This document shows, piece by piece, positions 4,527 to 28,268 of a stretch of 64,000 nucleotides of DNA (positions within the stretch are counted from its first letter, which is position 1; each line of letters begins with the position of its first letter). The notes under the pieces are model-generated. The model was not told where the DNA came from and ran no database searches. It saw only the letters and a list, made by a program, of their open reading frames with translations. The position numbers were made by a program, and so were the translations under genes. This stretch comes from a phage, in sequence record PZ445530.1. One strand, 5' to 3'.

Positions 4527-4534
4527 ACAAAGGT

Positions 4535-5659: not shown

Positions 5660-5670
5660 AAAGAGGGTAA

Positions 5671-5937
5671 ATGAAACTAACTCAGTTTTTATGGGGACTG
5701 GTTGCGGCATCTGATGACCCTACGAAAGTGTCCCAAACTAAGCTATGGTCGAACATAGGCATGGCGGTGATGACTGGGGTGTTTATTCATATGGGGTATA
5801 ATGATACGCTTCCTGAATGGTATACGTGGATATACGCGACTTCAGTAGCTTGCCCCCAGCTTATTAGCAAATTCATCTCGCTCCGGTGGGGTTGCCAGCA
5901 CCCTGACCACGTTAAAAACGAAGAGCAAAAAGCTTAA
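5671..5937 (+). CDS. small membrane protein (holin-like topology, function unproven)
   Basis: RBS aaagaggg; two hydrophobic segments (FLWGLVAA..., IGMAVMTGVFIHMGY). Confidence 0.45.
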   Translation: MKLTQFLWGLVAASDDPTKVSQTKLWSNIGMAVMTGVFIHMGYNDTLPEWYTWIYATSVACPQLISKFISLRWGCQHPDHVKNEEQKA

Positions 5938-5946
5938 GGAGAAATC

Positions 5947-7692: not shown

Positions 7693-7701
7693 TATATCTA
7701 A

Positions 7702-7726
7702 CCGCTCCTGACGGGGCGGTTTTCTT
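7702..7726 (+). terminator. intrinsic terminator
   Basis: CCGCTCC-TGAC-GGGGCGG hairpin followed by TTTTCTT. Confidence 0.6.
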
Positions 7727-7740
7727 ATCTGGAGAACACA

Positions 7741-10700
7741 ATGCTTCCAATCCCTTTGCTAAAACTTGGTCGTCATTTCCTCGATAAGAGGGGTGGAATT
7801 AAGGAACTTGCTGTTCTGTCATACCCAATAGACAACAGTGATGGTACAAGCAACACAGTATCCTATGTAAATAGCTTGGCTATACTTTTTGATGATGGTC
7901 AGCTTAATATTACGGGCTATAACAAGTTCGGGGAGTGTCGCACTGGGGATCGTAACCCTATAAACTACCCAAGCGAAACAGCCTGGAATGTTGATCATGT
8001 GTGGAGAGCAGACCGTGCGTTTGTGATCCGGACTTTTGATAACCAGTTTTTCTACATCGGCTGCACTGCAGGTCTTATCGGATCCACTGCGGCAGGCGGT
8101 AATGATGTTTGCGTAAACGAGTGGACACCTCTTCCGGAACAGATTGTTAAAGGGTTGCACCTTGACACCCACCCAGAGCGCCTTATTGAGGTGATGGGTG
8201 GTATTAACAACACTGTCTGGGTTATTGCAGAGGCAGAAGGCACTGGCATACTTAAACTATATGGATCTGGTAACAACACCTACGGATCTTTGCATGTAGA
8301 TAAAAATCAGCATGCAACCCCTGTAAAGATTGGTGAGACATCGGAAAATCCGGAAACAGGTCCTTGGAAAAACCCAAGCATCAACTGCGAGGTGCATGAC
8401 AACTCTGTTATTTTCGGTGGTCCTAGAGGCTTCTGGATTGCTGGATACGACTTTCTAAGAAATAACAGTAGAAACGACCTTGTTTGGCCTCCTGTGCAGA
8501 TTACTCGTAACGATTTGAGGGGCATTCCTGCAGATGAAGAGTGGAAAGGGTTTATGTGCGGTCCTAACGGGGCAATAATTGCCACACAGAGGATGCACAA
8601 ACCAAATGACCAGCAGCTTGTTAACGTATTCTACGGGCAAGACGTTTGGGGAGATGACACGTGGCGTTCCTTAAATATCACCTACACCCATGAGGTGATA
8701 ATGGCTCGTGGATACGGCACAAGTGGCATTTTCTTCAATAATGGCACTAAACAGTATCGTGGATTCTCTCGCAACTTGTGTAATGATATTGGTGCACAAT
8801 CTGCAAACAATAGCCCTAGGGCTAATTTTATCCACTATCAGGCTCTTGCTACAGCTAAATATGTTGAGCAACGCCTGCCAGTTAGCTGGACAGAGAGTGT
8901 TTATTTCCAAGGCATCCACAGGGAAGGTTTCTTAGGAACCTTTACTGTTGTTAATGGCAAACTTTGGTGGTCAGGCATCCCAAGGGGGAGTTTTGCAGGA
9001 TCTAACAACCTCTTTGGCGGCAGACTTAACAGCCAAGGGTTCACAGAGATTCCGGAGAATTGGTATAAAAATGTCCCGGTAGATAGCTGGGGTATCGAAG
9101 ACATCTTTGATGTCAATGGTGTGAGCAATGTTAGCAACATTTACATCGGAGATACTGTCAAGATGAAATTGAAACCTCAGCCGGAGGGTGCTACGTTCAT
9201 TATTGACAAGATTGAGTTGGTAAATGCTGCAGGCACTGTTGTTACAGATGCAAACTATCAGTTCTCCACTAACTGGAACCATGGTGGTGCTAACGAAGTT
9301 GTGGTCACCCAGTATAACCGTAACATCAACAGACGTGGTTTGTATTCTATCAAGATCACCTACCATGACAAGCATGGCACTGGAAGAACCTATACGACAA
9401 GAACTTTGAACTGGAACACTATAGTTCCTGCGTATCCGTCCAACGGCAAGTGGCATACCGTTGGTAGAAACAAGCAGTTCCATGTTAACGATACTGTATA
9501 CTTTGGGCTGAATGGGACCCAGCCTGCAGTAGAAGGGGATACATCGTATATGGTCAGACTCCACAGAATGGATGCTGGATCAGTCACTTATGATGTGACC
9601 CAAGAGATCTACGATCAAAGACGTGCCACGTATGACAATATTGTAAAAACACAAGCCTTGTGGGAGTTCAATCCTAATGGCAAGGGTGGTAAAATGTTGC
9701 AGGTTAATGAGCAGAACGGAACGTCGTTGACTGTTCACGAACACCCAGACCCTTGGCCTGATCCTGGAAAACCTCACCCGAGAGCTCGTACACTGAAAAT
9801 TGTCAGCCATGATGCAGGATATTTCGGAATACGCTGGGAAGCTACAGTAAGATATGTCGACGGGACAACAAACAACATAGGGATTACACTTGGCGGCACT
9901 AGTGAAGATAACTCGCTGAAAATTGCCTACACGCCCAGAGGTATCTCTATTGATAGTATGGATGTTGTTCGCAATGGCTACGGCGATGTGAATGTCAAAG
10001 TTACTCTTGGCGAACATCTTGGTGGGGAAAGGATCATCATGTATGCCTTTGATCATGATCCACGCACCAATGGAACTTATGCAAATCAGGCATGGAGTTA
10101 CCTGATAAATGCACCTGAGCCGAATACTAAAGAGTTCTACTATGGTATGAAGCGAGATGTGTGCAAGAAAACAGGAACACATGACTGGATTGCTATCTGC
10201 GTTAAAGATGAGCGCACAGCTTGGGATGAGCCTGTTAACAGATGGTTCATAGGTATTCCTACCAGAAGTGATAAGTATGTCGCAGAATATATTGTATGCA
10301 TGGGCGGTACCAACCTAAACATGTGTTGGAACGAAGATGTAAACAAATACTCTGATTATGACTATATGAGGGATTACTCTTGTAATTTGTGGTTTAACCA
10401 AACTACAGGTTACCCTCCAAGACAGGCGAGAGTAAACCCTGCAATCTTCACAGACACGCAGGTTTTCTTGACAAAACAGGCCAACGAGGTTCAGACCTTC
10501 AAGAATAAATACGATCCTAACAAGTGGTTCTACAACTGTTACGGCGCATTTTTCTGGGGACCTGGTGAGTTACCTGGTGGGGGATCTTGCTTGAATGAGG
10601 CAACTTACGCAAGTGACTACATCATGGGGCAGGTCAAGAAGTATAAGATAATCCCCGGTCCTGAGACTTTGGGCAATGCCGTTGACCCTTATATCATCAT

Positions 10701-13368
10701 GACTGCACTGAGATCAAACATGGATGGGACATCCATGTCCATGCAAATTCCGGTAACAAACGGATACAAACGTGTTGTGATGATCATTAAGTGCGACCTG
10801 ATAGGTAAACAAGTTCTTGCAGAAAACGGGACATCCACACATCCTTTTGAGATCGCTCTGCACTATCAGTTTGCTGACTCACCTTTTGCAGGGGATAAGA
10901 GAATATCTGATACAGACGCACAGCGTTGTAAGAAAGTATTGTTGGGTGCAGGTTGGTGGTGGTATGAGTTTGATTTAACAGACAAATTCACCGACACGTC
11001 TAAAGTTGTAACAGGACTTCGTCTAGACCTTGGCGAGAACATGCACAAAGCTGTTTGTGATGGCACCTATGGTGACCCTACAATATACCTAAAATATGTT
11101 TCTTTTGAGCATCCGGAAGATGTTGTCTACGGTCCAAAACTGAGATTGTTTGGCAGCTGGATTGCAAAAGATAGGGTAGGCATGGGTAAGAAGGTAAGAG
11201 GGCTCTTGGTTGATGCAGGAACAGAAGACATGCTGGTTAATGCAGTGTGGCCTGAATTACCTGGGACTCAGTGGGACAACTCAGCCAAATCTATAAACTG
11301 GTTTAACATTCATAGGGCCATGTGGACCACTAACTGCTACTTGTGGAGAGAGCTTAACGATCAGGCCTTTGGATTCAGCGATGGTAGAAGGATGGCGATC
11401 ATTTGCTGGACAACACTGCAAAGATGTTATGACCATGACTATGAGATTGGGGGCAGGGCATGGAAAAATATCAGGGATAGAATCATAACCAATTTTGCAG
11501 ACGACAACGGTGGTGGAGCACATAACTTTGGCACAAGCCGACTCATCCATCTGAACGGATCCTCAGCCTACAAGAAAGAAGGTTACTCTGGGTCTATGAT
11601 CGAGTGGGGTCTGGTGAAAGATGCTCGCGTATTGATGGGCCAGCAACTTGCTGCCGCAATAGGTCCCAGCGCAGTGCAGTCGGTTAAACCAGCGTGGTTC
11701 GATATTCCATTGTGGTCACCCGGAACACCGGGAACTGCTGCAATCAACCCTACCACTGGGGATCTAGAAATCTCCGGGGAGGACTTGAAGCAGGTCGGTG
11801 GTTGGGACAAAACAGGGTACCAGGTTCAGTGGTGGAGAGCTGATGGATCTTTAGCTGCTGATGAGTTTGTTAAGGACAATTTCTACACTATGTCCTCTGC
11901 AAAAGCACAGCAATTATTTGGTCAGGCAACTCCGTCAACGATCACCATGTCTATGTGCTGTAAAGACAACAGGACTGGAGCTTTGGGGCCAAGGGTTGCT
12001 AAAGTTTTCTCAGGTATTAAATGGAATCTACCTGTCCAAAGTATTTCATGGAAGCAAATAGGTGATAACAAGCTGCTGGTTACCCCTGCCTGTCAGTTCA
12101 ACGCAACTCTTAACGTTGATCCTGCTGTTGCGGCAAACTCAGCTAAAGCTTCTGACTTCTCTGTGTCTAACACTGCTATGGCAGATGTGAGGAAGATTGA
12201 CACACTGAACGCCAGAATTACCTGTAAAAACACTTATGGCACATTCCAAATCATCAACAACTTCACAGATGCTGATTCTAAGGTAGTAAGGACAGCAAGC
12301 CAGACTCTGAGTTTAGGGACTCTGGCCTATGCGGCCCTGATCACCGAACAGTCGGCAACACTCCAAGGAGGCGGTGTAGGCAAGTCCATTGCAACACCTG
12401 TGTGGAAGCCAAATGAGTGGGTTGTGTTTGATTTGACTGTGGACTTCTCCAGCGATAATAGCTGGACATGGGTAAGGAATTGTTTGTCACAATTGATGGG
12501 CGGTCCAAGCTCCGTTAGTGATAGTCACGACTCTACTGACCCGAGTGTGTTCCAGGTAGGTAAAACTCACCCAGAGACTGGAGAAACGTTGCCTGACAGG
12601 AAGTATGCGTTGGTTTGCATCTCTTACGGGAAGGCAGATGTCACATTCTCAGGGACACACACTTATAACGGAACTTACAACTTCTCAAGGAAGTATAGTC
12701 TCAAAGCAGGGAACATTATAGACGAGGTCGGTGTGCTTTATAATCCGGGCAACGGCATAGGGATTGTGGGCGGTAAACTGCAGATGCAGGAACCTTCTAT
12801 CACCCCTTCCAACGTATCCGGGATTAGAAAGACTTGGGAAAGTAGTGATACCAACATTGCAACAGTGGATGCCACCACAGGGCTGGTAACATTTAAAGCT
12901 ACTGGGAATGTCACCATAAAGTTTGTAGTTAGAGATGATGCAGGCCGCAAAACGTCTTCAACATCGTTTACTGTCAGACAGATGGCACCTCAGTGGTTTA
13001 TTTGGGAAGGAAATCCTCTTGACGGGGCTTACCCTAGACCTGCAGGAACGTCCAATATGAGGGTCTTTACCGGTCCGGTCATGAACAATCCGACCACAAC
13101 CACCAACCCTACATTTTTTGGTGCTTACATACCTGAAATTATTGGCCTACCAAGGAACCAGATACAACTGCTTTTCGGAGCAGGTGTTGATGGTCTAGCC
13201 ACTTTTGGGTACAGTGACAACATTGATGCAGCCAGAAGCTCGGGTTGGATTGGATTTAAGTTTCAGTGGAACCCTGGTGGTAGAACATTAGGTGTTGCAA
13301 GCATAGGTGTTATGCTACCTGGTAACCAGCAATACCATCTCGAAGCTTATACAAACTTCCCTAGTTAA
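7741..13368 (+). CDS. large virion protein (1875 aa), probable tail/host-interaction protein with Ig-like domain near C-terminus
   Basis: Single uninterrupted 5.6 kb ORF with RBS; C-terminal segment (TWESSDTNIATVDATTGLVTFKATGNVTIKFVVRDDAGRKTSSTSFTV) resembles bacterial Ig-like (Big_2) domains. Confidence 0.65.
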   Translation: MLPIPLLKLGRHFLDKRGGIKELAVLSYPIDNSDGTSNTVSYVNSLAILFDDGQLNITGYNKFGECRTGDRNPINYPSETAWNVDHVWRADRAFVIRTFDNQFFYIGCTAGLIGSTAAGGNDVCVNEWTPLPEQIVKGLHLDTHPERLIEVMGGINNTVWVIAEAEGTGILKLYGSGNNTYGSLHVDKNQHATPVKIGETSENPETGPWKNPSINCEVHDNSVIFGGPRGFWIAGYDFLRNNSRNDLVWPPVQITRNDLRGIPADEEWKGFMCGPNGAIIATQRMHKPNDQQLVNVFYGQDVWGDDTWRSLNITYTHEVIMARGYGTSGIFFNNGTKQYRGFSRNLCNDIGAQSANNSPRANFIHYQALATAKYVEQRLPVSWTESVYFQGIHREGFLGTFTVVNGKLWWSGIPRGSFAGSNNLFGGRLNSQGFTEIPENWYKNVPVDSWGIEDIFDVNGVSNVSNIYIGDTVKMKLKPQPEGATFIIDKIELVNAAGTVVTDANYQFSTNWNHGGANEVVVTQYNRNINRRGLYSIKITYHDKHGTGRTYTTRTLNWNTIVPAYPSNGKWHTVGRNKQFHVNDTVYFGLNGTQPAVEGDTSYMVRLHRMDAGSVTYDVTQEIYDQRRATYDNIVKTQALWEFNPNGKGGKMLQVNEQNGTSLTVHEHPDPWPDPGKPHPRARTLKIVSHDAGYFGIRWEATVRYVDGTTNNIGITLGGTSEDNSLKIAYTPRGISIDSMDVVRNGYGDVNVKVTLGEHLGGERIIMYAFDHDPRTNGTYANQAWSYLINAPEPNTKEFYYGMKRDVCKKTGTHDWIAICVKDERTAWDEPVNRWFIGIPTRSDKYVAEYIVCMGGTNLNMCWNEDVNKYSDYDYMRDYSCNLWFNQTTGYPPRQARVNPAIFTDTQVFLTKQANEVQTFKNKYDPNKWFYNCYGAFFWGPGELPGGGSCLNEATYASDYIMGQVKKYKIIPGPETLGNAVDPYIIMTALRSNMDGTSMSMQIPVTNGYKRVVMIIKCDLIGKQVLAENGTSTHPFEIALHYQFADSPFAGDKRISDTDAQRCKKVLLGAGWWWYEFDLTDKFTDTSKVVTGLRLDLGENMHKAVCDGTYGDPTIYLKYVSFEHPEDVVYGPKLRLFGSWIAKDRVGMGKKVRGLLVDAGTEDMLVNAVWPELPGTQWDNSAKSINWFNIHRAMWTTNCYLWRELNDQAFGFSDGRRMAIICWTTLQRCYDHDYEIGGRAWKNIRDRIITNFADDNGGGAHNFGTSRLIHLNGSSAYKKEGYSGSMIEWGLVKDARVLMGQQLAAAIGPSAVQSVKPAWFDIPLWSPGTPGTAAINPTTGDLEISGEDLKQVGGWDKTGYQVQWWRADGSLAADEFVKDNFYTMSSAKAQQLFGQATPSTITMSMCCKDNRTGALGPRVAKVFSGIKWNLPVQSISWKQIGDNKLLVTPACQFNATLNVDPAVAANSAKASDFSVSNTAMADVRKIDTLNARITCKNTYGTFQIINNFTDADSKVVRTASQTLSLGTLAYAALITEQSATLQGGGVGKSIATPVWKPNEWVVFDLTVDFSSDNSWTWVRNCLSQLMGGPSSVSDSHDSTDPSVFQVGKTHPETGETLPDRKYALVCISYGKADVTFSGTHTYNGTYNFSRKYSLKAGNIIDEVGVLYNPGNGIGIVGGKLQMQEPSITPSNVSGIRKTWESSDTNIATVDATTGLVTFKATGNVTIKFVVRDDAGRKTSSTSFTVRQMAPQWFIWEGNPLDGAYPRPAGTSNMRVFTGPVMNNPTTTTNPTFFGAYIPEIIGLPRNQIQLLFGAGVDGLATFGYSDNIDAARSSGWIGFKFQWNPGGRTLGVASIGVMLPGNQQYHLEAYTNFPS

Positions 13369-13380
13369 CAGGAGGCAAAT

Positions 13381-13410
13381 AAAAAGGGGCCAGACGGCCC
13401 CTTTCTTTTT
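13381..13410. terminator. bidirectional intrinsic terminator between convergent genes
   Basis: AAAAAGGGGCC-AGAC-GGCCCCTTTCTTTTT: GC hairpin flanked by A-run and T-run. Confidence 0.65.
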
Positions 13411-17837: not shown

Positions 17838-19319
17838 TTACTTAGCGTACTCGATTAATTCCACAGTTTTACCAAAGCTAGGGATATAATTTTTATTATA
17901 CCCTTCGGTTAGAACCCATAAAGTATCGTACTTTTTCCACTTGTTGTCAACAGCCTTTTGTTCAAAGTTATGCTCAAAGTATAGGTCGGTCAGGACGATG
18001 ACATCTTTTGCATTTGGTATGTTGGCATCCAGATACTCGAACACGCAAGCAGCTGTTGTTCCCCATGTTGAGTGGACCTCATAGTTGATCATTTCGTCTA
18101 TGTTGCCGCGAGTGTATACTTTAACCTCTCCAACCTCAGTTGACCAACAGAACATTGTAACCTTAAACTCTTTATACAGATTGCACAATCCGGTGATTTC
18201 ATTGAACATTTTCTTTAAAGTTCTTTGAGAGATCGAGCCAGAAACGTCTAAAGCCACCACAATATCTATAGTGTTTTCCGGATTACGACCAGGAACAATA
18301 ACGTGCTGGTTCTTGTTTATAGCCCCAACTTTTCGCATTGTGCTGGTCAAAGACCCAGATCGGCGACCAGGTTTTCTGTAGGTCAGTTCGGCCTTTCTTT
18401 TAGACAACATACGTTGCTTAATGATGTCTATATAGTTGATTACAGGCTTACCTCTGTTCTTGACAAACTCACGCACCGCCTCAGGGCAACGGCCTCCGGA
18501 CGCTTGCATTGCTGCCTCCAGCATATCACCAGAGTCCTGCATGGCCTGATCTTTATCAGATTGGCTGATTACAGGTTGTGGCTGATCATACCCCATAGCC
18601 TTTCCAAGATTATCACTGGTGCCACCGTTCCCACTCATGTGATCATCGGTTTGTCGCTTATCACTTTGAGAGTTCTCACCTTTACCGTTCTTACTTTTAC
18701 CGTTATTCTGATCTCTTTGCTTATCAAGAACTGCATAAACGTTCTCAGCAATCCATCCATGAAACTTCATGTCGCAGTAGCAGCTGGCTAAGAAGCCAAA
18801 AGGCTTACCTTTCATGAACGTAGTGCTTTTCCCCTTCGGGAAGAAAACACAAGGAGGTTTGCTAAAGTCAACCACAAGGCCTGTGTTGATAACGTGATCA
18901 CAAGCAATATTGAACAGTTCCGGCTCAAAGCTTTTACCACGGACTAGGTGATCACAGATAATATGCCCCACCTCATGTGACAGAAGGAAGGCCACCTCTT
19001 TCACAGATTTTGGGGAATAGAAAACTTCAGCCATCTCAAACTGCTCGTCAGTTAGAGAAGCCTTAAGAATAGCCTTGCGTTCATCAGCCAATCCCATAAT
19101 GAACTCAGGACTGTAATAGATGCGTTTATGGTCGGTTGCCATGGTGGAGCACCATGTGTGGTTTTCTACGAACTGCAACCCTGACAGTAGTGTGCCATAA
19201 AACGGCAGCTTTTCAAGGAGATACATACGTGCAGCCTGCAACATTCTCAGGGCATCATCTTTCTGCGAGGCAATGATTTCTGAACTTCTGCTATCCATTA
19301 AAACTCCAGAAGGGGCCAT
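17838..19319 (-). CDS. VWA-domain protein with N-terminal HExxH metallopeptidase-like motif
   Basis: HEVGHIICDH zinc-binding signature; C-terminal MIDAS-like IVVALDVSGSIS. Confidence 0.7.
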   Translation of the reverse strand: MAPSGVLMDSRSSEIIASQKDDALRMLQAARMYLLEKLPFYGTLLSGLQFVENHTWCSTMATDHKRIYYSPEFIMGLADERKAILKASLTDEQFEMAEVFYSPKSVKEVAFLLSHEVGHIICDHLVRGKSFEPELFNIACDHVINTGLVVDFSKPPCVFFPKGKSTTFMKGKPFGFLASCYCDMKFHGWIAENVYAVLDKQRDQNNGKSKNGKGENSQSDKRQTDDHMSGNGGTSDNLGKAMGYDQPQPVISQSDKDQAMQDSGDMLEAAMQASGGRCPEAVREFVKNRGKPVINYIDIIKQRMLSKRKAELTYRKPGRRSGSLTSTMRKVGAINKNQHVIVPGRNPENTIDIVVALDVSGSISQRTLKKMFNEITGLCNLYKEFKVTMFCWSTEVGEVKVYTRGNIDEMINYEVHSTWGTTAACVFEYLDANIPNAKDVIVLTDLYFEHNFEQKAVDNKWKKYDTLWVLTEGYNKNYIPSFGKTVELIEYAK

Positions 19320-19331
19320 TGGCCCCTGTCA

Positions 19332-20126
19332 TTATTTAACGTGTTTGAAAATACCTGCCAACTCGGTCATTGTCATGCGGGTGGTCTTCATAAGATCTGT
19401 CATAGCTTTCTCCATAATTGGAGATACTACCATAAAGTTTCCTTTAGTGAAACCTTTATTCCAGTCGGTCACCAACAGGGGTTTAAGTCCAGCTCCAAGA
19501 CGTTCACCAGTTAAAGCACAGCATTTGCGAATATACGAACTCTTAAATTGGCTGAACGACAGATCAACTTTCATACCTACATCGTAGAACGTTTGACAAT
19601 AGAAAGTGTAAGCTTTGGCAATCTCAACATCATCAGGTAGTGCAGGAACCTCTTCTGTAAGCTCCTCTTCGACCTCCTGAGTCTCTTTTTCCTCTTCATG
19701 CACCTGTTGCGTCATTTCTTCAATCTCTTCTGTGATAGGCTCGTTTACAATGTCGGAAATGTGCTTCTTGGGTGCACGATAAGTAACTTTAGACATCGGT
19801 AGCATATCTTCCTCCTCTTCTTCGTCAAAGAGTGCTAGTTTATCCTCTTCCGTTCCATATTGCAAGATGAAATCTTCAAAAGTATAATCACCTTTCAATT
19901 TCTCCATACGCTCTTCGCTCAGGTGGAGCATCATCTGCTGGACAATTTTTCGATCAGTTTCGTCTTTAATCAAGACTGCAGTCTTTTTATCTACCAGACA
20001 GTCCTTTAGAGAGTTGCATCTCAATCCCACCACACAACAGTTATCAACCGCATAAGGACCTTCATCATCTATCCGCTCCAGAGATGGGTAGAAAGGATTC
20101 CCCAGCCCGTTTTCATCTGTGTGCAT
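19332..20126 (-). CDS. acidic hypothetical protein (264 aa; possible internal start at 19796)
   Basis: Glu-rich central region; contains internal MSKVTYRA encoded by a 27-nt sequence identical to the start of gene 21639-21995. Confidence 0.5.
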   Translation of the reverse strand: MHTDENGLGNPFYPSLERIDDEGPYAVDNCCVVGLRCNSLKDCLVDKKTAVLIKDETDRKIVQQMMLHLSEERMEKLKGDYTFEDFILQYGTEEDKLALFDEEEEEDMLPMSKVTYRAPKKHISDIVNEPITEEIEEMTQQVHEEEKETQEVEEELTEEVPALPDDVEIAKAYTFYCQTFYDVGMKVDLSFSQFKSSYIRKCCALTGERLGAGLKPLLVTDWNKGFTKGNFMVVSPIMEKAMTDLMKTTRMTMTELAGIFKHVK

Positions 20127-20381
20127 GTCAAAAGGTATAAGGGTATAGTCGCATACTCCATCTCCTAAAAGTTTTTTACCAAATAGGAGATATTCTTCCC
20201 ATGACAGGTCGAACTCTATATCTCGTTTCCGTGCGTTATTCTGTTTGCGTCTATATTTTTGAGCAAGCGCTCTAACTCTTCTGGTGTATAATATTTTTCA
20301 AGATTCATGAGTCGTCTCTCGTGCTCTGTAAGTGAAGAAATCGTATCAATTGTCTCAACAGATGTCAACATCAAAAACGTG

Positions 20382-20410
20382 TTGACTTTACTCTAACTCC
20401 ACAATATAGT
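20382..20410 (+). promoter_or_regulatory. sigma70-like promoter for gene at 20451
   Basis: TTGACT - 17 bp - TATAGT in divergent intergenic region. Confidence 0.5.
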
Positions 20411-20450
20411 GCACCCATTCGAAAGAAAACTAACATAGGAGCACTTACTT

Positions 20451-21350
20451 ATGGCAAATCTTAACAGTTTTAGTACGCGGTGGAAACAGGACATAACAAC
20501 CAATCTTTCAGCTGGGGACATCCTTTCTGCAATTTACGAGGCTTTAGATGATAAAGCTACTTCAAAAGCGGTTTGTACCAACCCATTAATTCCTATAGTG
20601 ATGAAGGTTATTGAGCGTAGATTGGTATCTGGGTCTAATAAGTGGACATATTTAGATAATGAAGGACACACCTATTCCAATGGGTATGTCGATATAAAAG
20701 TAGAATACGCGGTATCATACCGCCGGAGCGGTTCTGTAACTTTCAACTTCTCTGGAGGTTTTCGATCTCTGGCTACCTCACCTTTTGTTTCCTCAGAGGA
20801 GAAGTATGAGCTGCCATTTCTTTGGATGATGGCTAACGCGACAGGAAAAACCCCCGTTAGCATCCGAGTAAAATACAACTACAACGGATCTAGTAAGATC
20901 TATGCCGAAAGTGTCTCAGCAAGTTTTTATTTTGTGATGGGGGATGGAATCCTCAAACATATAAAGATGTGCGATATGCATGATGTTATAAATGAAGTGA
21001 CTGATAAGAATGTTCTAGTGAAAGACCTCAACAATTTTTATACACCCGGAGACTATTACGTCAGCCGTCCACTGTGCATCTTTAATGCCGCACACCCTCT
21101 AGGTGAGTATTTGATCGCCAATAGCGATATTGCCAATAACCGCTTCGAGGTAGCAAGAGTTCAGAATGAGGTATTGACATCTTGCAAGAGCGGTGATAAG
21201 TTTACCGAAGAAGAGATGGGTGTTTTAGAAATGATGGGATATAAGTGTAGCCTTTGGGTAGATGAGGTGTTCAATGATTGCATCTATGGACAGGATATTT
21301 ACCCATTAAAGAAGTATACTGATTCCAGTTTAATTTACGCGGAGATTTGA
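20451..21350 (+). CDS. hypothetical protein (299 aa)
   Basis: RBS taggagc before ATG. Confidence 0.55.
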   Translation: MANLNSFSTRWKQDITTNLSAGDILSAIYEALDDKATSKAVCTNPLIPIVMKVIERRLVSGSNKWTYLDNEGHTYSNGYVDIKVEYAVSYRRSGSVTFNFSGGFRSLATSPFVSSEEKYELPFLWMMANATGKTPVSIRVKYNYNGSSKIYAESVSASFYFVMGDGILKHIKMCDMHDVINEVTDKNVLVKDLNNFYTPGDYYVSRPLCIFNAAHPLGEYLIANSDIANNRFEVARVQNEVLTSCKSGDKFTEEEMGVLEMMGYKCSLWVDEVFNDCIYGQDIYPLKKYTDSSLIYAEI

Positions 21351-21352
21351 CT

Positions 21353-21625
21353 ATGATGAAGTCATGTGGTAGTGTATATTATGTTGGTGAGAATGTTCAG
21401 GCAGATAGTGTGTGGAAATCCATTAAGTCCACCACCGATGATGCCTTTCTGAGCGGGTTATGTTTTCCCAGCCCAGGGGACACTCTCCCTTACCCTGGAG
21501 ATTTTGTTGTCAACAAGATGGACGGTTATACCGTGTGCCTGATGGTTGAAAAAATCTTTTTAGACACTAGACACAATCACCGTCTTGTGTTAAAATTTCA
21601 AGAATGTAAAATGACAATTGCCTAA
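21353..21625 (+). CDS. hypothetical protein (about 90 aa)
   Basis: First in-frame ATG of track ORF 21347-21625. Confidence 0.45.
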   Translation: MMKSCGSVYYVGENVQADSVWKSIKSTTDDAFLSGLCFPSPGDTLPYPGDFVVNKMDGYTVCLMVEKIFLDTRHNHRLVLKFQECKMTIA

Positions 21626-21638
21626 GGAGACCTTGCCG

Positions 21639-21995
21639 ATGTCTAAAGTTACTTATCGTGCAGCTATTTACTGCAATGAACACCCAATCAATAATGATGG
21701 TCACTGCCTTTTTAAAGAAAATCAATTGGGCTGTATTGTCCTCCCTGATGAAGGGGAAGGTTATCTGATTGCGTTGACAGGGTTTGAACCTGAAGCTCTG
21801 GAAGCCAATCTTGACTACCTGGTAGAGGAGGGTGCTGCAGACCTGGTTGCCAATGGCCTCTCCATAAGCCTTGACGAAGTGGAGCGCTTCATGGGCAATT
21901 ACCGTGTAGTGCGTGAGTTTACTGTCGAGATGGAAACTCCCGAGTGGGGTAGCCATGAAACTAATGCCGAAGAAAAAGAAGAGGAGGTAGAATAA
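21639..21995 (+). CDS. hypothetical protein, N-terminus MSKVTYRA
   Basis: AAGGAG RBS 7 nt before ATG at 21639 (track start 21618 is an upstream alternative). Confidence 0.5.
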   Translation: MSKVTYRAAIYCNEHPINNDGHCLFKENQLGCIVLPDEGEGYLIALTGFEPEALEANLDYLVEEGAADLVANGLSISLDEVERFMGNYRVVREFTVEMETPEWGSHETNAEEKEEEVE

Positions 21996-22252
21996 TGAAA
22001 GTGCAGATCTTGACTAATGCCGAGAAGATGTTTATTGAAGATACACCTTTTGAAGCTGGTGAGCTACAGTTCGTTTATTTTGTTGACTTAGATAAGGTGT
22101 TTCCTGCACTGAATCTAGGTTTGGATGAAGTTCCTCATAAGGTTTTGTGCCAAGTTGTTCGTGCCTTAGCGGCAGAGGGGGAGTTCCACACCCTTCAAGA
22201 TATCCAGACCTACGGGTATCTTGAACTACAACGAGAAGAAGAGGTGGACTGA
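21995..22252 (+). CDS. hypothetical protein (85 aa)
   Basis: GAGGAGG RBS; ATGA overlap with upstream stop. Confidence 0.45.
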   Translation: MKVQILTNAEKMFIEDTPFEAGELQFVYFVDLDKVFPALNLGLDEVPHKVLCQVVRALAAEGEFHTLQDIQTYGYLELQREEEVD

Positions 22253-22254
22253 TA

Positions 22255-22635
22255 ATGGCTCAGTGGAAGACAACAGTTGACCTTCATGATCAGTGGTTAG
22301 GACGCATCACTGAAGACGGGAAGCTAGTGGAGTGGGACAATAAGCATGTTAGCGAGTTGGCAAGTATTGTGGCTGGCAAGTTACGCTCCAAGTTCCCTGA
22401 ACAACTGGATCCTGATAGTTCAAAGTTCGATCCTGAGTTAGAGGATGTTGTATACTACTTCGACACCGTTGATGACTACGACGCGTGGTTTGCAGCACGG
22501 GAGCTTTACCCACAAGGCTCTGCTATGCGCCAGATGGAAGAAGATTATCCTCCGTGTGAGCAATTCAATAGTGCAATGACTTGCCTCTATGATTGGGCAG
22601 ATAAGAACCTTGTCTGGATTCGGACTGCATTTTAG
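22255..22635 (+). CDS. hypothetical protein (126 aa)
   Basis: ORF in track with upstream GAGG. Confidence 0.5.
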   Translation: MAQWKTTVDLHDQWLGRITEDGKLVEWDNKHVSELASIVAGKLRSKFPEQLDPDSSKFDPELEDVVYYFDTVDDYDAWFAARELYPQGSAMRQMEEDYPPCEQFNSAMTCLYDWADKNLVWIRTAF

Positions 22636-22679
22636 TGGGCAGGAATGGCGGCAAGGATGCTGCTTAAGGAGTGGTAGAG

Positions 22680-22949
22680 ATGTTATACCAGCAATATGAA
22701 CTTCGTGCAGAAAAAGAGTTAAATTTTGACAAAGATATTCACAGATATTATTATGGGAAAGTTAGAGGGCAAGCAAGAAAGTGTACTCCAACACTCTTTT
22801 ATGCCAGCAGACGACTAGCGCCAGAAGAGGCAACAGCAGAAAGGGTTGCGTACAACTGGAGAGTCACGTATGATATTGACAGATTCGATATGATATCTGT
22901 TTTGGAAAACTTTGAAAACACTTACACACAAGTAGAGGACTTTTACTAA
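22680..22949 (+). CDS. hypothetical protein (about 89 aa)
   Basis: ATG after aaggagtgg within track ORF 22671-22949. Confidence 0.45.
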   Translation: MLYQQYELRAEKELNFDKDIHRYYYGKVRGQARKCTPTLFYASRRLAPEEATAERVAYNWRVTYDIDRFDMISVLENFENTYTQVEDFY

Positions 22950-24133
22950 TGTCAAGAAACGTATTCGAAAGTGGTCAAATCACTGTCCGTGAGTTGCCAG
23001 CTATTATTCAGTTTGCCCAACGTCATAGCCGATCTGTCCTAATTTTGGGACCAATGGGTGTGGGTAAAAGCCAGGTGATGAAGCAGATCGCTGATAATAT
23101 GTTCGGTGAGCGAGATGACAACCTTGTTGACGTGCGACTGTCAGATAAAGATCCTGCCGACTTATCTGGGCTACCTATCCCTGTAGAAGCGGATGGAACT
23201 ACACGTACAGTGTTTGCAATTCCAGAATTTTGGCCTGCGGATCCTGACTGGAGCGGAATTATCTTTCTGGATGAGCTCACTCATGCAGATAACTACCTGC
23301 AAAAGGTTGCAATGCAAATTATGCTTGACCACAAGTGCGGCACCTATGCATTCCCTAAGGGTTCTGTTTTTGTGGCTGCGGGTAACCGTTCTACAGATGG
23401 TGCGGTTCTTTCGGCGCTCGAAGCCCCTCTGGCTAACCGTTTTATCATTGTAGAGGTTACAAGCAATGCAGAGGTGTTTATTGAGGACTACGCATTCCTC
23501 AACGGGGTTCACTCCTCTGTAATTGGGTATCTGAAAAGAGTTCCATCAGCTATTGATAATTATGAGGCTATGGCTGAGATTAATTGTCCATCTTTTGCCA
23601 CACCACGATCTTGGGTTGCTGCATCTGACATCTTGCACGATTTTGACAGCGGTATTATTTCTGACGCTATGGCCCGTGTTCTTCTACAAGGTGCTATTGG
23701 TCACACTGCAGCGGTAGAGATCTGGACTTACCACACCAAGAAACGTAATTTACCGGAAATCGGTCGGATTATGGCAGGTGGCTGCAAAGAATACGTAGGT
23801 CCTAAGCAGCCAGACATTTTGTGGATTCTTGGATCTGAAGGTTGTATCGCTATTCGCAATATGATGGAAAATGCAAGTATCTCCGACGAAGATCTTGTTA
23901 GCTGTGTGGCAAACTTCCTCGATTTCCTTTGGGAAAATTTCAAGGACGAGAACCGAGATTTTGTATTCTCAGTCTTTATGGCGATGATGAAACCTAACGC
24001 CTTAGGAAATGCCTTGCTTATCGGTAAAGGGCGTGACAAGATTGTTGCTCAGTTGATCAAAGCATATCCAAACCTGATGAAGATTGTAAAAGAGTTTGGT
24101 GAAGAGTTTAGCGCCATTTTGGCTAAAGCTTAA
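22949..24133 (+). CDS. AAA+ ATPase (MoxR/CbbQ-like)
   Basis: Walker A GPMGVGKS, Walker B IIFLDELTHA, sensor-1 AAGN, Arg finger LANRF. Confidence 0.7.
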   Translation: MSRNVFESGQITVRELPAIIQFAQRHSRSVLILGPMGVGKSQVMKQIADNMFGERDDNLVDVRLSDKDPADLSGLPIPVEADGTTRTVFAIPEFWPADPDWSGIIFLDELTHADNYLQKVAMQIMLDHKCGTYAFPKGSVFVAAGNRSTDGAVLSALEAPLANRFIIVEVTSNAEVFIEDYAFLNGVHSSVIGYLKRVPSAIDNYEAMAEINCPSFATPRSWVAASDILHDFDSGIISDAMARVLLQGAIGHTAAVEIWTYHTKKRNLPEIGRIMAGGCKEYVGPKQPDILWILGSEGCIAIRNMMENASISDEDLVSCVANFLDFLWENFKDENRDFVFSVFMAMMKPNALGNALLIGKGRDKIVAQLIKAYPNLMKIVKEFGEEFSAILAKA

Positions 24134-24535: not shown

Positions 24536-24560
24536 CCCCCGCTTCGGCGGGGATTTTCTA
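24536..24560 (+). terminator. intrinsic terminator
   Basis: CCCCGC-TTCG-GCGGGG hairpin followed by ATTTTCTATTT. Confidence 0.55.
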
Positions 24561-24572
24561 TTTGGAGTCATT

Positions 24573-25073
24573 GTGAAAATTAAGATCTTTGCTATTATTT
24601 TGAGCGCACTTTTATCGCTGCCTGTTGTTGCAGCACCAAAACAAAAAGTATATCATACTTGCAAGCCATCAGATACTAAGGAAAACATTCTGGCATGCAA
24701 TATCTACAGGGAAGCTAGAGGAGATGGCACGATGGGTATGCTGGCATCTGGGTTTGCCACACTAAACAGGAAATCCCACCCTAAATACCCAGACACTATA
24801 AGAAAGATTGTCTACCAACCTAACCAGTTTTCGTGGACAAACCACGGCAAAACTTTTAAGGTGACAGAAAAAGATTCATGGGATCACGCTAAAAGTCTTG
24901 CAAAGATGCTTCTAAAGGTCTATAATAACAACCATGTTGCATACATGGCTATGGACATAACAGGTGGAGCAACACACTACCATACAACCAAAGTACGACC
25001 GAAATGGGCAAAAAAGATGCAGAGGACAGCTCAATTCGGGAGCCATATCTACTACAAGGAGCGCAATAAATGA
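24573..25073 (+). CDS. secreted cell-wall hydrolase, SleB/CwlJ-like (candidate endolysin)
   Basis: GTG start after GGAG; N-terminal signal peptide MKIKIFAIILSALLSLPVVAAP; CNIYREARGDG resembles SleB-family motif. Confidence 0.5.
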   Translation: MKIKIFAIILSALLSLPVVAAPKQKVYHTCKPSDTKENILACNIYREARGDGTMGMLASGFATLNRKSHPKYPDTIRKIVYQPNQFSWTNHGKTFKVTEKDSWDHAKSLAKMLLKVYNNNHVAYMAMDITGGATHYHTTKVRPKWAKKMQRTAQFGSHIYYKERNK

Positions 25074-27052
25074 TCGTAAACAGTAATGAAACTAAAGCGG
25101 TACTAACCGGGAATATGGAGGTCACCAGGGGCTCAATTTCTCTGAACAAAGAGACTTTTGGGCTAATCATTAAAGGGATTTACGAAGATAAGGTGCTGGC
25201 AAGCTGCCGTGAACCAATCTTCAATGCCGTGGACTCCCATGTTGAGTCTGGACGGGGTGATGTACCGATCATTATTCACTCTCCTACAGACCTTGAACCA
25301 TACTTCTTTGTGCAGGACGTTGGATTGGGCATGTCAGAAGAGATGGTCCGCAACACTTTCATGAACCTCGGGGAGTCAACCAAGCGCAACAGCAACGCTC
25401 TGGTAGGTAATAAAGGTGTTGGTTCAAAGGCTCCGTTCAGCATGGTGGACACTTTCGATGTTATCAGTGTGCACAATGGTGTTGAAAGCACATATCTATT
25501 GTTCTTGGATCAGGGTATCCCAAACGTTACCAAGATCCGTGAGCGGAAGACTGAAGAGCACAACGGGGTAAAAGTTCAGTTCCATGTTAAGAAAGAGCAT
25601 GTCCTGAAATATCGCACTGCTATTGCATCGTGCTTACGCTATGCGAAGTTTCCGTTCATCGTCACCGATCCTATGACCAGTAAGATGTTAGAAGGTGACA
25701 AGGTTGAGGCACAGTATCATTACGAGAAGGATGGCTGGAAAATGACCATCCTGAAAGGTTATACCAGTTCTGATGAGAGCCGTGTTGTGATGGGTCACCA
25801 ACCTTACCGCTCCAAGTTCCTGGAGACATTGACCGATTACCCTGCAATCTGCGTGGAAATTCCTATTGGGGATTGCAATATTAACCCTGGGCGTGAATGG
25901 ACCATAGAGGGCCATGACGACGGTGGATTCCAGGATCGCCTGGAGGCCTTTGTCAAAGAAGGTATACGTCTTCGCGGGGCAGAAGTTGTTGCAGAACTGG
26001 AGACGGCAAAAACCTCCGCAGAAGCACGTGAAATGATGAAGAATAGTGGAGTGTTCGGACACATCTTCGGCAAAAACTTTATGTGGAACCGTTGGGAAGA
26101 AACAGGGCTTGGCGACTTAGGCGATTGTGAAATTTTCGCTGGCGGCTTAAATAAAGGCCGCATAGGCTATGCTCGTTACGGAAAGTCGGAGTTCTTACGA
26201 GGTGTATACCTTGTATTTAACGACGGAGACGGCAAATATAACCGGAATAAGTGTAACTACTTAAGCGAGATCACCGGACGCAACGTTTTCTATTGCCGGA
26301 ACACGGATCTGGTGAAAGAGTTTAAAGAGGCGGCACACCATCCGTTCTTTGCAGATACGGTCAAATTGTTATCGGAGCTTCCACGCCGACCTGCGAAGAA
26401 AGGTGAAACCAAAACTCGTTACGAGCCAGGCTACTGGGTTAAGAAGCTTAGAGAGGATGGCTACTTCCATCGTGAGCGCCTCACGAAGGCAGAGTTCAAG
26501 AAGATTAAGCATTGCATCCCTTATGAGGGGGATATCCAACGGGGAAGCTGCTGGCTGGGCCAGATGAGTAACATCTACCAGCAAAATTATGACCGTGTGC
26601 GTGCTGCACTCCAGATTCCTGAAGGTGAAGATCTGTACCTGGTATCAGAATCTCGTCTGCTTTGGACTGATCCTGATTGCCAGTATGTTACAGAGAAGAA
26701 TGTGGAACATTTGTTGAAAGAGGATGCTTGGAAATTCTTACTGACTCGCGCAGCAAATGAAACTTCATATGACAGCCTGTATAGACAATTAGGGAAAATT
26801 ATCCCCATGCAGGATTTTGGAAATTATCGGCCACATTTCCACAAGTGGGAAGGTAACACCGCGTGGAAGCACAGTGAGCTAAATCATCGTGCCAAAATCT
26901 TAATCGCCAACCGAGTTAAATGCGGGAAGGCCTATATTGCAAGATTGGAAAAGAAATACCCACTTTTGAAGCATGTAGGCTTGAAATATTGGGACACCCC
27001 TGCTATGATTGAATACCGTGAGCTGATTGATACAAAGAATAACACCAAATAA
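25070..27052 (+). CDS. rIIA: rIIA-like protein with GHKL (histidine-kinase-like) ATPase domain
   Basis: N-box NAVDS, G1-box QDVGLGM, G2-like GNKGVGSKAPF; size 660 aa and position before a second large ORF as in rIIA/rIIB pairs. Confidence 0.55.
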   Translation: MIVNSNETKAVLTGNMEVTRGSISLNKETFGLIIKGIYEDKVLASCREPIFNAVDSHVESGRGDVPIIIHSPTDLEPYFFVQDVGLGMSEEMVRNTFMNLGESTKRNSNALVGNKGVGSKAPFSMVDTFDVISVHNGVESTYLLFLDQGIPNVTKIRERKTEEHNGVKVQFHVKKEHVLKYRTAIASCLRYAKFPFIVTDPMTSKMLEGDKVEAQYHYEKDGWKMTILKGYTSSDESRVVMGHQPYRSKFLETLTDYPAICVEIPIGDCNINPGREWTIEGHDDGGFQDRLEAFVKEGIRLRGAEVVAELETAKTSAEAREMMKNSGVFGHIFGKNFMWNRWEETGLGDLGDCEIFAGGLNKGRIGYARYGKSEFLRGVYLVFNDGDGKYNRNKCNYLSEITGRNVFYCRNTDLVKEFKEAAHHPFFADTVKLLSELPRRPAKKGETKTRYEPGYWVKKLREDGYFHRERLTKAEFKKIKHCIPYEGDIQRGSCWLGQMSNIYQQNYDRVRAALQIPEGEDLYLVSESRLLWTDPDCQYVTEKNVEHLLKEDAWKFLLTRAANETSYDSLYRQLGKIIPMQDFGNYRPHFHKWEGNTAWKHSELNHRAKILIANRVKCGKAYIARLEKKYPLLKHVGLKYWDTPAMIEYRELIDTKNNTK

Positions 27053-27061
27053 GGAGACAGT

Positions 27062-28268
27062 TATGATTTTCATCTACGAACACTTCAAAACTCGTAAAGA
27101 AGCACGCGACCGCCGTGCAGAACTTGAGAAGAAGGGTTTCACATGTGCCATTGAGAAAGGCGACACAACCTGGACACTGGCAGTTGGTGCCCCAGAGTTG
27201 TTCGATCCTGACCGTGACAGCGTCTGCTACACCCGTGAGGATTTTGAAACCCGTGAAGAGGCCCGTCTATTTCGATATGGGCTGGAAGATAATGGTAAGT
27301 ACGCCATGATCTTAGACTTAGGCGAAGGTTCCGTTAAACGTTGGGGCGTGGTATACCCACTGTGTGTTGTTCACGGTGTGGGGTTCACTGGGGTGGCAAT
27401 CAAGTCAGAAGAACCTTTAGTAGAAGTCAAAGACCCGGTGCTGGAGGTGGTGAGCAGTGTGTCTCAGCAACAGACTCGAAGCATCGAGCCTTTAGTAGTT
27501 ATTTGTGGGGAACTCCTCCAGATCACCTGCAACGAAGGCATTTTTGAAATTCGCCGCAGCGAAAGTGAGGAAGTTTACCAGAAAGTCTTCGACCATATCT
27601 CTGTTCAGGAATATGATGAGGCAATTGGTGAAATCCTTGTCTGGCTGGAACGCAAGAATGAGTTCACCACACTTGCAGACAACCTGATCATGAAAGATGG
27701 TAAGCTCTACTACTACGGTGTAGAGATGCGATCCACCATTGCAAAGAAAATTGAGAAAGACTATGCAGACGGAACACTGGATGACCGCTATGTGAAATTC
27801 CTCGTTCGCCTGCTACGCAATCCTTCTGCAAAATCTGTAAACATGCTCTACGATTTTATGCAGGCCAACGATATCCAGATTGCAGAAGATGGTCGAATCA
27901 TTTGCTACAAAGGGGTTCAGTTTAACGGCAGCAAGTGGGTGGATTGGCACAGTGGTAAAGTTCCACAATACCAGGGTGCTTTTGTATCCATGCCTCGTAA
28001 CTTTGTAGAGGATGATCCTGAAGCTGCGTGCTCCTATGGCTTACACTGCGCCAGCAAGGAGTATGCAAAGAGCTACGGCACTGTAATGACTGTCATGGTT
28101 GACCCTGCAGATGTGGTTAGTGTGCCATACCAACACAATAGCGCTAAGTGCCGTGCATGCCGCTATGAGATTGTGGTAGCTCCGGAAGCACGCAAGGACG
28201 GAGACCCGATTGAATACGTGGTTGACCGAGACGGTAACACTATCGACATTCTTTACGAGGAGGCGTAA
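27062..28268 (+). CDS. hypothetical protein, positional candidate for rIIB-like partner
   Basis: ATG after aaggagac; follows rIIA-like gene; no diagnostic motif recognised. Confidence 0.45.

Follow-up and report, generated by a model that had tools for sequence, protein, structure and literature searches.

A MoxR-class AAA+ ATPase and an HExxH-VWA protein encoded on opposite strands of an rV5-like coliphage are a probable split two-gene module

The 64,000 nucleotides of phage DNA analyzed here (PZ445530.1; the window) belong to a Vequintavirus, an rV5-like coliphage. A DUF2201-family protein with HExxH and von Willebrand factor A (VWA) motifs and an AAA+ ATPase are encoded on opposite strands of it, and Table 1 lists both genes with their key residues and the signals around them. 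The original prediction had placed the ATPase gene about 3.6 kb from the VWA gene; its coordinates hold, and the gap between the two genes is 3,630 nt.

Table 1. Genes, motifs and predicted signals of the locus (window positions).
Feature	Position	Strand	Remarks
DUF2201-family gene, rV5 gene 12/13 equivalent	17838..19319	minus	from N- to C-terminus: putative HExxH zinc-peptidase domain, disordered linker, VWA/MIDAS domain
MIDAS DVSGS, residues 358-362	18234..18248	minus	completed by G420-T421 and T444-D445
H124 of VWA protein	18948-18950	minus	invariant, as is D141
HEVGH, the HExxH zinc-binding/catalytic motif, residues 115-119	18963..18977	minus	invariant in 28 sequences
GC-rich hairpin AGGGGCC-ATT-GGCCCCT	19311..19327		between gp11 stop and VWA start codon
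Srd-like 'anti-sigma factor' gene, rV5 gp11, PHROG 3118	19332..20309	minus	first gene of leftward unit; frameshifted in window
Back-to-back sigma-70-like predicted promoters	20340..20410	both	minus TTGACA-17-TACGAT (20368-20340); plus TTGACT-17-TATAGT (20382-20410)
Small ORF, rV5 gp5, 89-92 aa	22671..22949	plus	stop overlaps ATPase start (TAATG)
Near-consensus sigma-70 predicted promoter TTGACA-17-TATTAT (11/12)	22726..22754	plus	195 nt upstream of ATPase ATG, inside small ORF
MoxR-class AAA+ ATPase, 394 aa	22949..24133	plus	100% identical to rV5 gp4; AAA+ core, then family-specific helical C-terminal region of ~115 residues
Walker A GPMGVGKS, residues 34-41	23048..23071	plus	motif in alignment
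Walker B D108-E109 (IIFLDE, 104-109)	23270..23275	plus	motif in alignment
Strong intrinsic terminator-like hairpin CCCCGCTTCGGCGGGG + T-run	24537..24552	plus	after ATPase and one more gene

The VWA protein matched two Pfam families above their gathering scores and in N-to-C order, DUF2201_N (PF13203, residues 96-321; 99.1 bits against a cutoff of 23.2), described in Pfam as a putative metallopeptidase domain, and the 'VWA-like' DUF2201 (PF09967, residues 353-488; 43.8 bits against 26.4). In an alignment of 28 members H115, E116, H119, H124 and D141 were invariant, as were D358, S360, G361, S362, G420, T421, T444 and D445; the VWA (Rossmann-like) fold carries the DxSxS...T...D motif of a full MIDAS. 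The HExxH stretch gave weak profile matches to the MJ1213 minigluzincin and to M48 peptidases, a structural search with the N-terminal domain returned no confident match, and zero PADLOC defense-system models matched the protein. Vequintavirus members carry extra insertions of ~40-60 residues relative to their N4-like counterparts. Pfam and the motifs bear out the earlier description of an HExxH protein with a C-terminal MIDAS at these coordinates, but its length of 493 aa should probably be reduced to 486: the likely start is ATG 19298, because GGAG lies 5 nt upstream and relatives begin at the aligned M8. ATG 19319 sits within the GC hairpin.

For the ATPase, all Pfam AAA models stayed below cutoff (AAA_5, 16.7 bits against 22), and PHROG 1297 ('ATPase') matched at 2e-110. 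The profile searches that had been suggested as a check thus gave significant matches for the VWA protein and fell short for the ATPase in Pfam only. Cellular homologues of ~360 aa (~34% identity, E ~1e-44) carry AAA_3 (PF07726) and AAA_5 (PF07728), so that membership of the window ATPase in these families is transitive. Among 23 aligned sequences G37, G39, K40, S41, D108 and E109 were invariant, as were N146, the putative sensor-1 residue, and R147, R164 and R220, which are candidates for the arginine finger and sensor 2. The top 12 Foldseek matches of the ATPase model were NorQ and CbbQ2 (E 1.7e-7 to 9e-7), most with a TM score of 0.6-0.65 normalized to the target, and the family profile also matched the AAA domains of midasin (E 1e-11). 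PADLOC models gave only P-loop-level matches (E above 0.002). The MoxR class comprises seven Snider-Houry subfamilies (PMC3893208). Homologues, motifs and folds together identify the window protein as a divergent MoxR-class AAA+ ATPase; the 'MoxR/CbbQ-like' label given to it before is correct for the class, and the CbbQ likeness exists at the fold level only.

The closest cellular relatives of both proteins are encoded by bacterial AAA_5 and DUF2201 operons (Sulfurivermis fontis, Sulfuricurvum, Sedimenticola). A DUF2201 gene directly follows that of the S. fontis AAA_5 ATPase, which is 31% identical to the window protein over 272 aa (E 7e-37), and the best hits given earlier by the rV5 authors were proteins of Sulfuricurvum and Thioalkalivibrio. 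We fetched 80 bacterial loci carrying an ATPase homologue: 71 contained a DUF2201 gene, which lay downstream on the same strand in 70, at spacings from overlap to a gap of ~900 nt; four of the nine loci without one were truncated contigs and five were not. Such operons occur in sulfur-oxidizing chemolithotrophs, sometimes near soxYZ-like genes. Their genes are strictly adjacent, unlike those of the window, and encode shorter proteins (~350 and ~415 aa). Some bacterial lineages have a third, lineage-specific operon gene that is absent from the window.

The same arrangement recurs in phages. On N4-like contigs, ATPases 29-33% identical to that of the window are encoded directly upstream of DUF2201 genes, and Certrevirus KaOmega, whose genus belongs to the same subfamily as the window phage, has an adjacent pair (gp123/gp124). 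Of 52 loci with a VWA gene, 51 held an ATPase gene within the flank. It preceded the VWA gene on the same strand at 31 of them, and the 20 loci with the genes on opposite strands were all Vequintavirinae-like; at one locus (L014) a VWA gene had no ATPase gene within 10 kb on either side. The pair occurs in 624-786 phage records, and genomes with the ATPase and with the VWA gene were equal in number in Escherichia (211/211), Pectobacterium (26/26) and Cronobacter (17/17) phages. No ATPase-VWA fusion was found among the homologues; an 819-aa candidate (P0025) was rejected on inspection. Because ATPase homologues adjoin DUF2201 genes in bacteria, N4-like phages and Certrevirus, gene context indicates that the window ATPase and VWA protein are a cognate pair, and the comparison shows that the two genes form an ancient operon, with the ATPase gene first, among bacteria and in several groups of phages. 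The adjacency of orthologues in 70 of the 80 bacterial loci and in 30 viral loci also strongly supports the original proposal that the two would act as a chaperone-like pair.

The opposite-strand layout, with the genes 2-5 kb apart, was confined to the Vequintavirus/Seunavirus-type branch; in Seunavirus GEC_vB_MG, for example, gp262 and gp257c are divergent and ~2 kb apart. On this distribution the layout is a derived, lineage-specific rearrangement within the Vequintavirinae, most simply an inversion with one breakpoint between the ATPase and VWA genes. The orientation of a SleB gene fits inversion of the ATPase block at one locus (L027), but not clearly at another (L029). All 20 split viral loci and GEC_vB_MG keep both genes at full length, even where identity to the window falls to 39% for the VWA protein and 43-44% for the ATPase, and the Walker motifs, the MIDAS and all catalytic residues are invariant in split-lineage members.

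The -35 boxes of the back-to-back promoters fall in an inverted repeat (20364-20386) that is kept across a ~61%-identity group, and an independent report (PMC3606486) places bidirectional promoters between rV5 genes 10 and 11. In the split lineage the gp11 gene always lies directly upstream of the VWA gene. A related locus (L008) has a hairpin of different stem sequence at the place of the one that precedes the window VWA gene, and its predicted promoter (6657-6629) lies at the same distance from the ATPase start as in the window; the small ORF is present in the closest genus only. Overall, the sigma-70 scan returned 36 sites where 26.6 were expected, modestly above chance. The earlier description of divergent transcription units is right for the layout, which is derived and not ancestral. 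It probably does not separate the two genes in time either, because both arms start at one conserved bidirectional promoter region and belong to non-late units.

We consider it likely that the ATPase and the VWA protein are two subunits of one remodeling machine whose operon was later split. A hexameric MoxR-class ATPase would have the VWA protein as its cofactor, and the rearrangement placed their genes on opposite arms of the bidirectional promoter region. Host RNA polymerase would use the back-to-back sigma-70 promoters for both genes and a further promoter for the ATPase gene, with the two products accumulating together before the late genes are expressed. NorQ-NorD, CbbQ-CbbO and RavA-ViaA suggest by analogy how the machine may work: the VWA domain may dock on the ATPase ring, its MIDAS may bind a target protein through an acidic residue of the latter, and the target would be remodeled as ATP is hydrolyzed; the fused HExxH domain may cleave the target or the cofactor itself.

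NorQ-NorD and CbbQ-CbbO offer the closest solved ATPase fold and a partner VWA domain with a full MIDAS, as in the window. The AlphaFold model of the window ATPase (pLDDT 81) gives a candidate helix-2 insert hairpin and a candidate pre-sensor-1 hairpin: its secondary-structure string places strands 76-81 and 84-89 after beta2 and ahead of beta3, with short strands preceding beta4 at ~129-134. However, identity is only 15-20%, the phage ATPase has ~115 extra C-terminal residues, NorD and CbbO have no HExxH domain, the NorD 'finger', which inserts into the ATPase pore, had no identified counterpart in the window pair, and the phage lacks the clients cNOR and Rubisco. E. coli RavA-ViaA and midasin (Rea1), which has its own MIDAS, likewise combine an AAA_5-clade ATPase with a VWA/MIDAS module but differ in subfamily and architecture, RavA having a LARA domain and midasin being a single giant polypeptide. 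Among phages, the gp24 (AAA ATPase) and gp25 (vWFA protein) of coliphage N4 and other N4-like phages (Schitoviridae) are homologous to the window pair, the N4 VWA protein matching that of the window in tblastn (E 2e-10) with the same two-domain layout. Both belong to the 14-gene core of N4-like phages (PMC4193335), in which the genes are adjacent and co-directional with the ATPase first, rather than 3.6 kb apart on opposite strands; rII-like genes lie near the pair in both N4 and the window phage.

From the position of the genes we infer a pre-late, non-structural role for such a machine. A more specific reading, that the pair is an ATP-powered, MIDAS-targeted protease acting pre-late against a specific host protein in takeover or counter-defense, and not in virion assembly, is offered as speculation that is unlikely to be correct in full; on this reading the Vequintavirus module would share its bidirectional early promoter with the Srd-like anti-sigma factor.

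A late role, in which the pair would be a virion-assembly chaperone and protease that folds, assembles and processes structural proteins, has been proposed for the MoxR and vWA pair of group 2.2 jumbo phages (Iyer et al., 2021; PMC7824862). That pair has the same architecture, with an N-terminal metallopeptidase, and the same inferred chaperone/co-chaperone logic, and jumbo phages such as 121Q and GAP32 have homologues at 27% identity. The analogy with the ATV MoxR protein p618 points the same way, a fused peptidase domain would suit maturation, and roseophage RPP1 has the genes of some virion proteins close to its gp24/gp25 homologues (PMC4193335). In rV5 and N4, however, gene position points to pre-late expression: the rV5 genes lie in sigma-70 bidirectional units outside late genes 27-66, no T4-late-like motif was found directly upstream of either window gene, and N4 gp24/gp25, which lie between RNAP2 and the dCTP deaminase, are described as middle transcripts (PMC4193335). 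In the portion of the rV5 Table S3 covering genes 1-88, gp4 and gp12 are not flagged with 'MS evidence' as virion proteins, although a chaperone need not be packaged, and the same operon exists in bacteria without a phage context. We regard the assembly role as possible but rather unlikely.

Metal insertion is the best-documented function of MoxR-VWA pairs, for example NorQ-NorD, CoxD-CoxE and the chelatases (PMC13036017; PMC3893208). The window pair could likewise be a chaperone for metal insertion or cofactor maturation in a metalloenzyme of phage or host, with the HExxH domain binding or handing over metal and cleaving no peptide. NorQ as the closest fold, the dCTP deaminase, dUTPase and ThyX genes near the pair in N4-like phages, and the chemolithotroph setting of the bacterial operons, soxYZ-like neighbors included, would fit. 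This appears quite improbable to us: no conserved gene that could be a client is common to the phage and bacterial contexts, the third genes of the bacterial operons are confined to particular lineages and missing from the window, and both the Pfam description of DUF2201_N and the weak M48 and minigluzincin matches lean toward a peptidase.

It is very doubtful that the split made the two proteins functionally independent, leaving the ATPase to work alone or with another partner and the peptidase without ATP-driven remodeling. Loss of the operon does remove enforced co-expression, the ATPase gene has its own near-consensus promoter, and some loci have one gene without the other (the ATPase gene alone at five bacterial loci, the VWA gene with no ATPase gene nearby at L014), but both remain full-length with invariant Walker and MIDAS motifs in split-lineage members, and no second VWA or MoxR gene was found in the 13-29 kb region of the window that we scanned. 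Chance co-occurrence of unrelated AAA+ and VWA proteins in a large phage genome, as the sub-threshold Pfam scores of the ATPase and the separation of the genes on opposite strands might suggest, is effectively refuted by the specific orthology of this ATPase to DUF2201-linked ATPases and by adjacency kept in >100 independent loci.

Iyer et al. (2021) had described the MoxR and VWA pair in jumbo phages, and the window is a further example; the finding by itself alters no concept and is real but ordinary. The MoxR and DUF2201 (HExxH-VWA) pair is nevertheless among the more widespread phage modules and is experimentally uncharacterized; it is carried by rV5-like phages that have been investigated and used against E. 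coli O157:H7, and is also a conserved operon in sulfur-oxidizing bacteria. Recognizing the split genes as a module corrects misleading annotations such as 'HNH endonuclease' and 'DNA repair ATPase', and rV5 gp4/gp12 and N4 gp24/gp25 offer two genetically tractable E. coli systems for a substrate search. The split genes are a natural test of whether the pair needs its operon structure, and the host-targeting protease reading, if true, would give a first function to a core pair of N4-like phages found in >600 sequenced phages.

Over the 8-kb stretch around both genes, identity is 99.1% with Escherichia phage PMBT16 and 96-98% with many other rV5-like phages (Vequintavirus). The two ORFs of the original prediction, an AAA+ ATPase gene on the plus strand and, on the minus strand, a DUF2201-family gene for a protein with an HExxH motif and a VWA domain (hereafter the VWA protein), are both present as described. 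The ATPase matches, at 100% identity, gp4 of phage V5/rV5, which Table S3 of PMC3606486 labels 'MoxR - ATPase' as gene 4 in the rV5 numbering; the same table lists the rV5 VWA protein as gene 12 (441 aa) with an overlapping 81-aa gene 13, and notes PF13203. Whereas the VWA gene is split in the rV5 record DQ832317, it is a single intact ORF of 486-493 aa in the window and most relatives, and the division into genes 12 and 13 is probably a frameshift error of the old record. The predicted start of this ORF, at 19319, fared less well than the ORF itself: translation probably begins at 19298, because the first residue of relatives aligns with M8, a GGAG precedes 19298 by 5 nt, and position 19319 falls within a GC hairpin.

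Several database labels in this region look unsupported. The VWA protein is called 'HNH endonuclease' in PHROG 1314 and several RefSeq records and 'DNA repair ATPase' in the GEC_vB_MG record, the small ORF gp5 is called 'ATPase', and gp10, which lacks a Pfam hit, is called 'alpha 1-3 fucosyltransferase'. Sixteen 'Campylobacter phage' records, whose stated host is Campylobacter jejuni or Campylobacter, share 97-99% identity with E. coli rV5-like phages; this host label looks doubtful and may stem from contamination or mislabelling. The 'Campylobacter phage' matches H5, H10, H11, H26, and H29 (MG0656xx) are unannotated.

Synteny and co-occurrence bear out the original prediction that the ATPase and the VWA protein are a pair. 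An ATPase homologue lies within the flank at 51 of 52 loci with a DUF2201 homologue. The DUF2201 gene of Sulfurivermis fontis is preceded, 115 nt upstream, by the gene of a 348-aa AAA_5 protein that is 31% identical to the window ATPase over 272 residues (E 7e-37), and in three N4-like contigs the DUF2201 gene is directly preceded by that of a 372-392 aa ATPase, 29-33% identical to that of the window. In the reverse survey, 80 bacterial loci were retrieved using the ATPase alone; a DUF2201 gene was present in 71, downstream on the same strand in 70, and four of the nine loci without one are truncated too close to the ATPase for a neighbouring gene to be seen. In bacteria the two genes overlap by 1-40 nt or are separated by up to about 900 nt, mostly by less than 300 nt. 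Across complete phage genomes, the per-genus counts of the two proteins match closely. Coliphage N4 encodes the pair as gp24/gp25, and its GenBank record points to two similar Streptomyces coelicolor proteins ('protein 1' and 'protein 2').

A candidate natural ATPase-VWA fusion, the 819-aa DUF2201 homologue P0025, was rejected: all that it has in addition is a long N-terminal extension and a linker, without similarity to the ATPase. The contig IMGVR_UViG_3300045988_163358 (L014) is the sole related phage contig with Srd-like and VWA genes but no ATPase homologue nearby, here within 10 kb on either side. Every gene in its upstream 10 kb is on the strand of the VWA gene, and a megablast search for a close complete genome gave no match.

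The assignment of the ATPase to the MoxR-like AAA+ class is supported. The protein is divergent, and all Pfam AAA models score under their cutoffs; a single-sequence search of the PDB gave P-loop matches to Clp proteins only. Its homologues, invariant motifs, and model fold are nevertheless evidence for the assignment. The ATPase falls into PHROG 1297 (E 2e-110) and has >5,700 relatives, including cellular proteins of ~360 aa that carry AAA_3 and AAA_5 and share ~34% identity over ~85% of the query (E ~1e-44). Walker A, Walker B, N146, and four arginines are invariant in the family alignment, and a search with the family profile picks up midasin AAA domains (E 1e-11). The structures most similar to the ATPase model (pLDDT 81) are NorQ and CbbQ2, and the model has a putative hairpin at the site of the clade's helix-2 insert. 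About 115 helical C-terminal residues, conserved within the family, lie outside the NorQ-aligned part. A pairing of the MoxR subfamily APE2220 with COG3864/DUF2201 was not confirmed, and APE2220 contains CoxD; literature searches on a MoxR subfamily paired with COG3864/DUF2201, and on rV5 with MoxR, gave nothing usable.

The opposite-strand layout is limited to one branch. Viral loci with a VWA protein 39-99% identical to that of the window number 20, and in every one the ATPase is 3.5-5.3 kb away on the other strand; in the Seunavirus GEC_vB_MG it is ~2 kb from the VWA gene. The order ATPase then VWA gene, with a 67-nt gap, is found in contigs of 142-152 kb (33-35% identity) and is retained in Klebsiella phage KaOmega (Vequintavirinae, genus Certrevirus). 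Because the two genes are adjacent in all outgroups, adjacency is ancestral and the Vequintavirus split is a derived rearrangement that arose within the Vequintavirinae. A single inversion that broke the locus between the two genes would yield the observed layout, in which they face away from each other with promoter-proximal genes in between. SleB is the only gene common to split and adjacent contexts, and its position gives mixed signals on the path. The Srd-like gene (rV5 gp11, PHROG 3118) is always directly upstream of the VWA gene in the split lineage and is missing from adjacent-type loci. Both genes are full-length in the split lineage and keep all catalytic residues, which argues that the partnership outlived the split.

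The gap between the two arms contains two predicted promoters whose inverted repeat (AGTCAAC...GTTGACA) is kept, though the flanks diverged, in a group only ~61% identical at the VWA protein. We propose that this is a conserved bidirectional promoter common to both arms; bidirectional promoters between rV5 genes 10 and 11 were reported independently by Kropinski et al. (PMC3606486). These authors describe rV5 genes 11-26 and 10-1-238-164 as units apart from the late genes 27-66, which bear a T4-late-like motif. The window has 17 copies of this motif (TGGTAAAATA, <=1 mismatch) against 6.3 expected, a number reached in 0 of 100 shuffles, and six copies are on the plus strand of the structural-gene block 1-13400. 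This enrichment supports the late-promoter motif proposed for rV5. The window scan found no copy directly upstream of the ATPase or VWA gene, and one 1-mismatch copy within gp11. The predicted ATPase promoter is at exactly the same distance from the ATPase start in a locus of the ~61%-identity group (L008, 6657-6629), and the stop codon of gp5 and the ATG of the ATPase overlap (TAATG). With its own promoter inside gp5 and this overlap, the ATPase may be translated from two mRNAs, a long one with coupling to gp5 and one of its own. The N4 homologues are described as middle transcripts (PMC4193335). We infer this expression picture of both Vequintavirus genes from sequence; a search of the literature on Vequintavirus transcriptomics gave nothing usable.

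Coordinates of genes and sequence features around the ATPase and VWA genes
Feature	Coordinates	Strand	Remarks
VWA gene	17838-19319	-	
Hairpin	19311-19327		GC-rich; between gp11 stop codon and VWA start codon
gp11 (Srd-like)	19332-20309	-	
Homopolymer in gp11	20256-20260		T-run on + strand, A-run in gp11; A5 in window, A6 in phage magaca
Two back-to-back sigma-70-like promoters	20364-20386 (inverted repeat formed by -35 boxes)		In gap between arms; sequence scan
gp10	20451-21350		299 aa
gp5	22671-22949	+	92 aa
Predicted ATPase promoter	22726-22754	+	Sigma-70, 11/12 consensus; inside gp5, 195 nt before ATPase start
ATPase gene	22949-24133	+	394 aa
Strong terminator	24537-24552		End of ATPase unit; sequence scan
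rIIA-/rIIB-like genes	24573-28268		0.9 kb downstream of ATPase

A hairpin occurs at the site between gp11 and the VWA gene in L008 too (9975-9994), with the stem GGGGCC in the window and GGGGGC in L008. Because its position is kept despite the different stem sequence, these data point to a conserved RNA element, for instance an attenuator, processing site, or stabiliser. In the window, a homopolymer of gp11 lacks 1 nt, and the resulting frameshift leaves an N-terminal fragment of ~30 codons from ATG 20309, or a 52-aa ORF if counted from an upstream TTG, and a 264-aa ORF; the frameshift could be a sequencing error or real, possibly at a slippage-prone site. Genes similar to rIIA and rIIB lie near the pair in rV5-like phages and 3 kb downstream of gp25 in N4 (record 15460 onward), a proximity that may reflect merely shared early/middle timing.

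The cellular ATPase-DUF2201 operon was found almost only in sulfur-oxidising taxa, a sample that the search patterns may bias: Sulfurimonas, Sulfuricurvum, Sulfurovum, and Arcobacter among the Campylobacterota and Sedimenticola, Thiodiazotropha, and Thiotrichales among the Gammaproteobacteria. SoxY/SoxZ-like genes lie 4.6-5.1 kb downstream of the operon in seven loci, and an M48/TPR peptidase gene follows it in nine. The neighbours at the 80 bacterial loci were clustered in search of a third gene whose conservation might hint at the substrate. The third genes found were all lineage-specific: one for a 370-390 aa protein that follows the VWA gene at 18 gammaproteobacterial loci, one for a ~460 aa protein that precedes the ATPase at 16 Campylobacterota loci, neither protein with a Pfam match, and DUF6866 at 10 loci. 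The window and the phage loci hold no homologues of these third genes.

With the solved MoxR/VWA machines (PMC13036017) as a template, six ATPase subunits would form a ring with the VWA domain docked at the pore face, and an acidic client residue would be bound by the MIDAS. Hydrolysis of ATP would remodel the client through twisting or stretching of the cofactor. The DUF2201 family is distinguished by the fusion of an HExxH domain to the VWA domain, which suggests remodelling coupled to cleavage by the putative peptidase domain. A conserved basic segment (Y314, R319, R320, and S321; low pLDDT) precedes the VWA domain, and we speculate that it engages the pore or is a cleavage site. A single-sequence search of the PDB with the VWA protein gave no matches, and a PADLOC search found no defence-system membership of the pair. 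A published proposal assigns the module a role in virion assembly (PMC7824862). This may be so, but neither the pre-late position of the genes in rV5 and N4 nor the occurrence of the same operon in bacteria fits it well.

The pairs of N4 (gp24/gp25) and of jumbo phages (Iyer et al. 2021) and the annotation of rV5 gp4 as MoxR were already known. Our analysis adds that the Vequintavirus genes are the same module, that they were separated by a derived rearrangement within the subfamily, and that a conserved, predicted bidirectional promoter would serve both arms.
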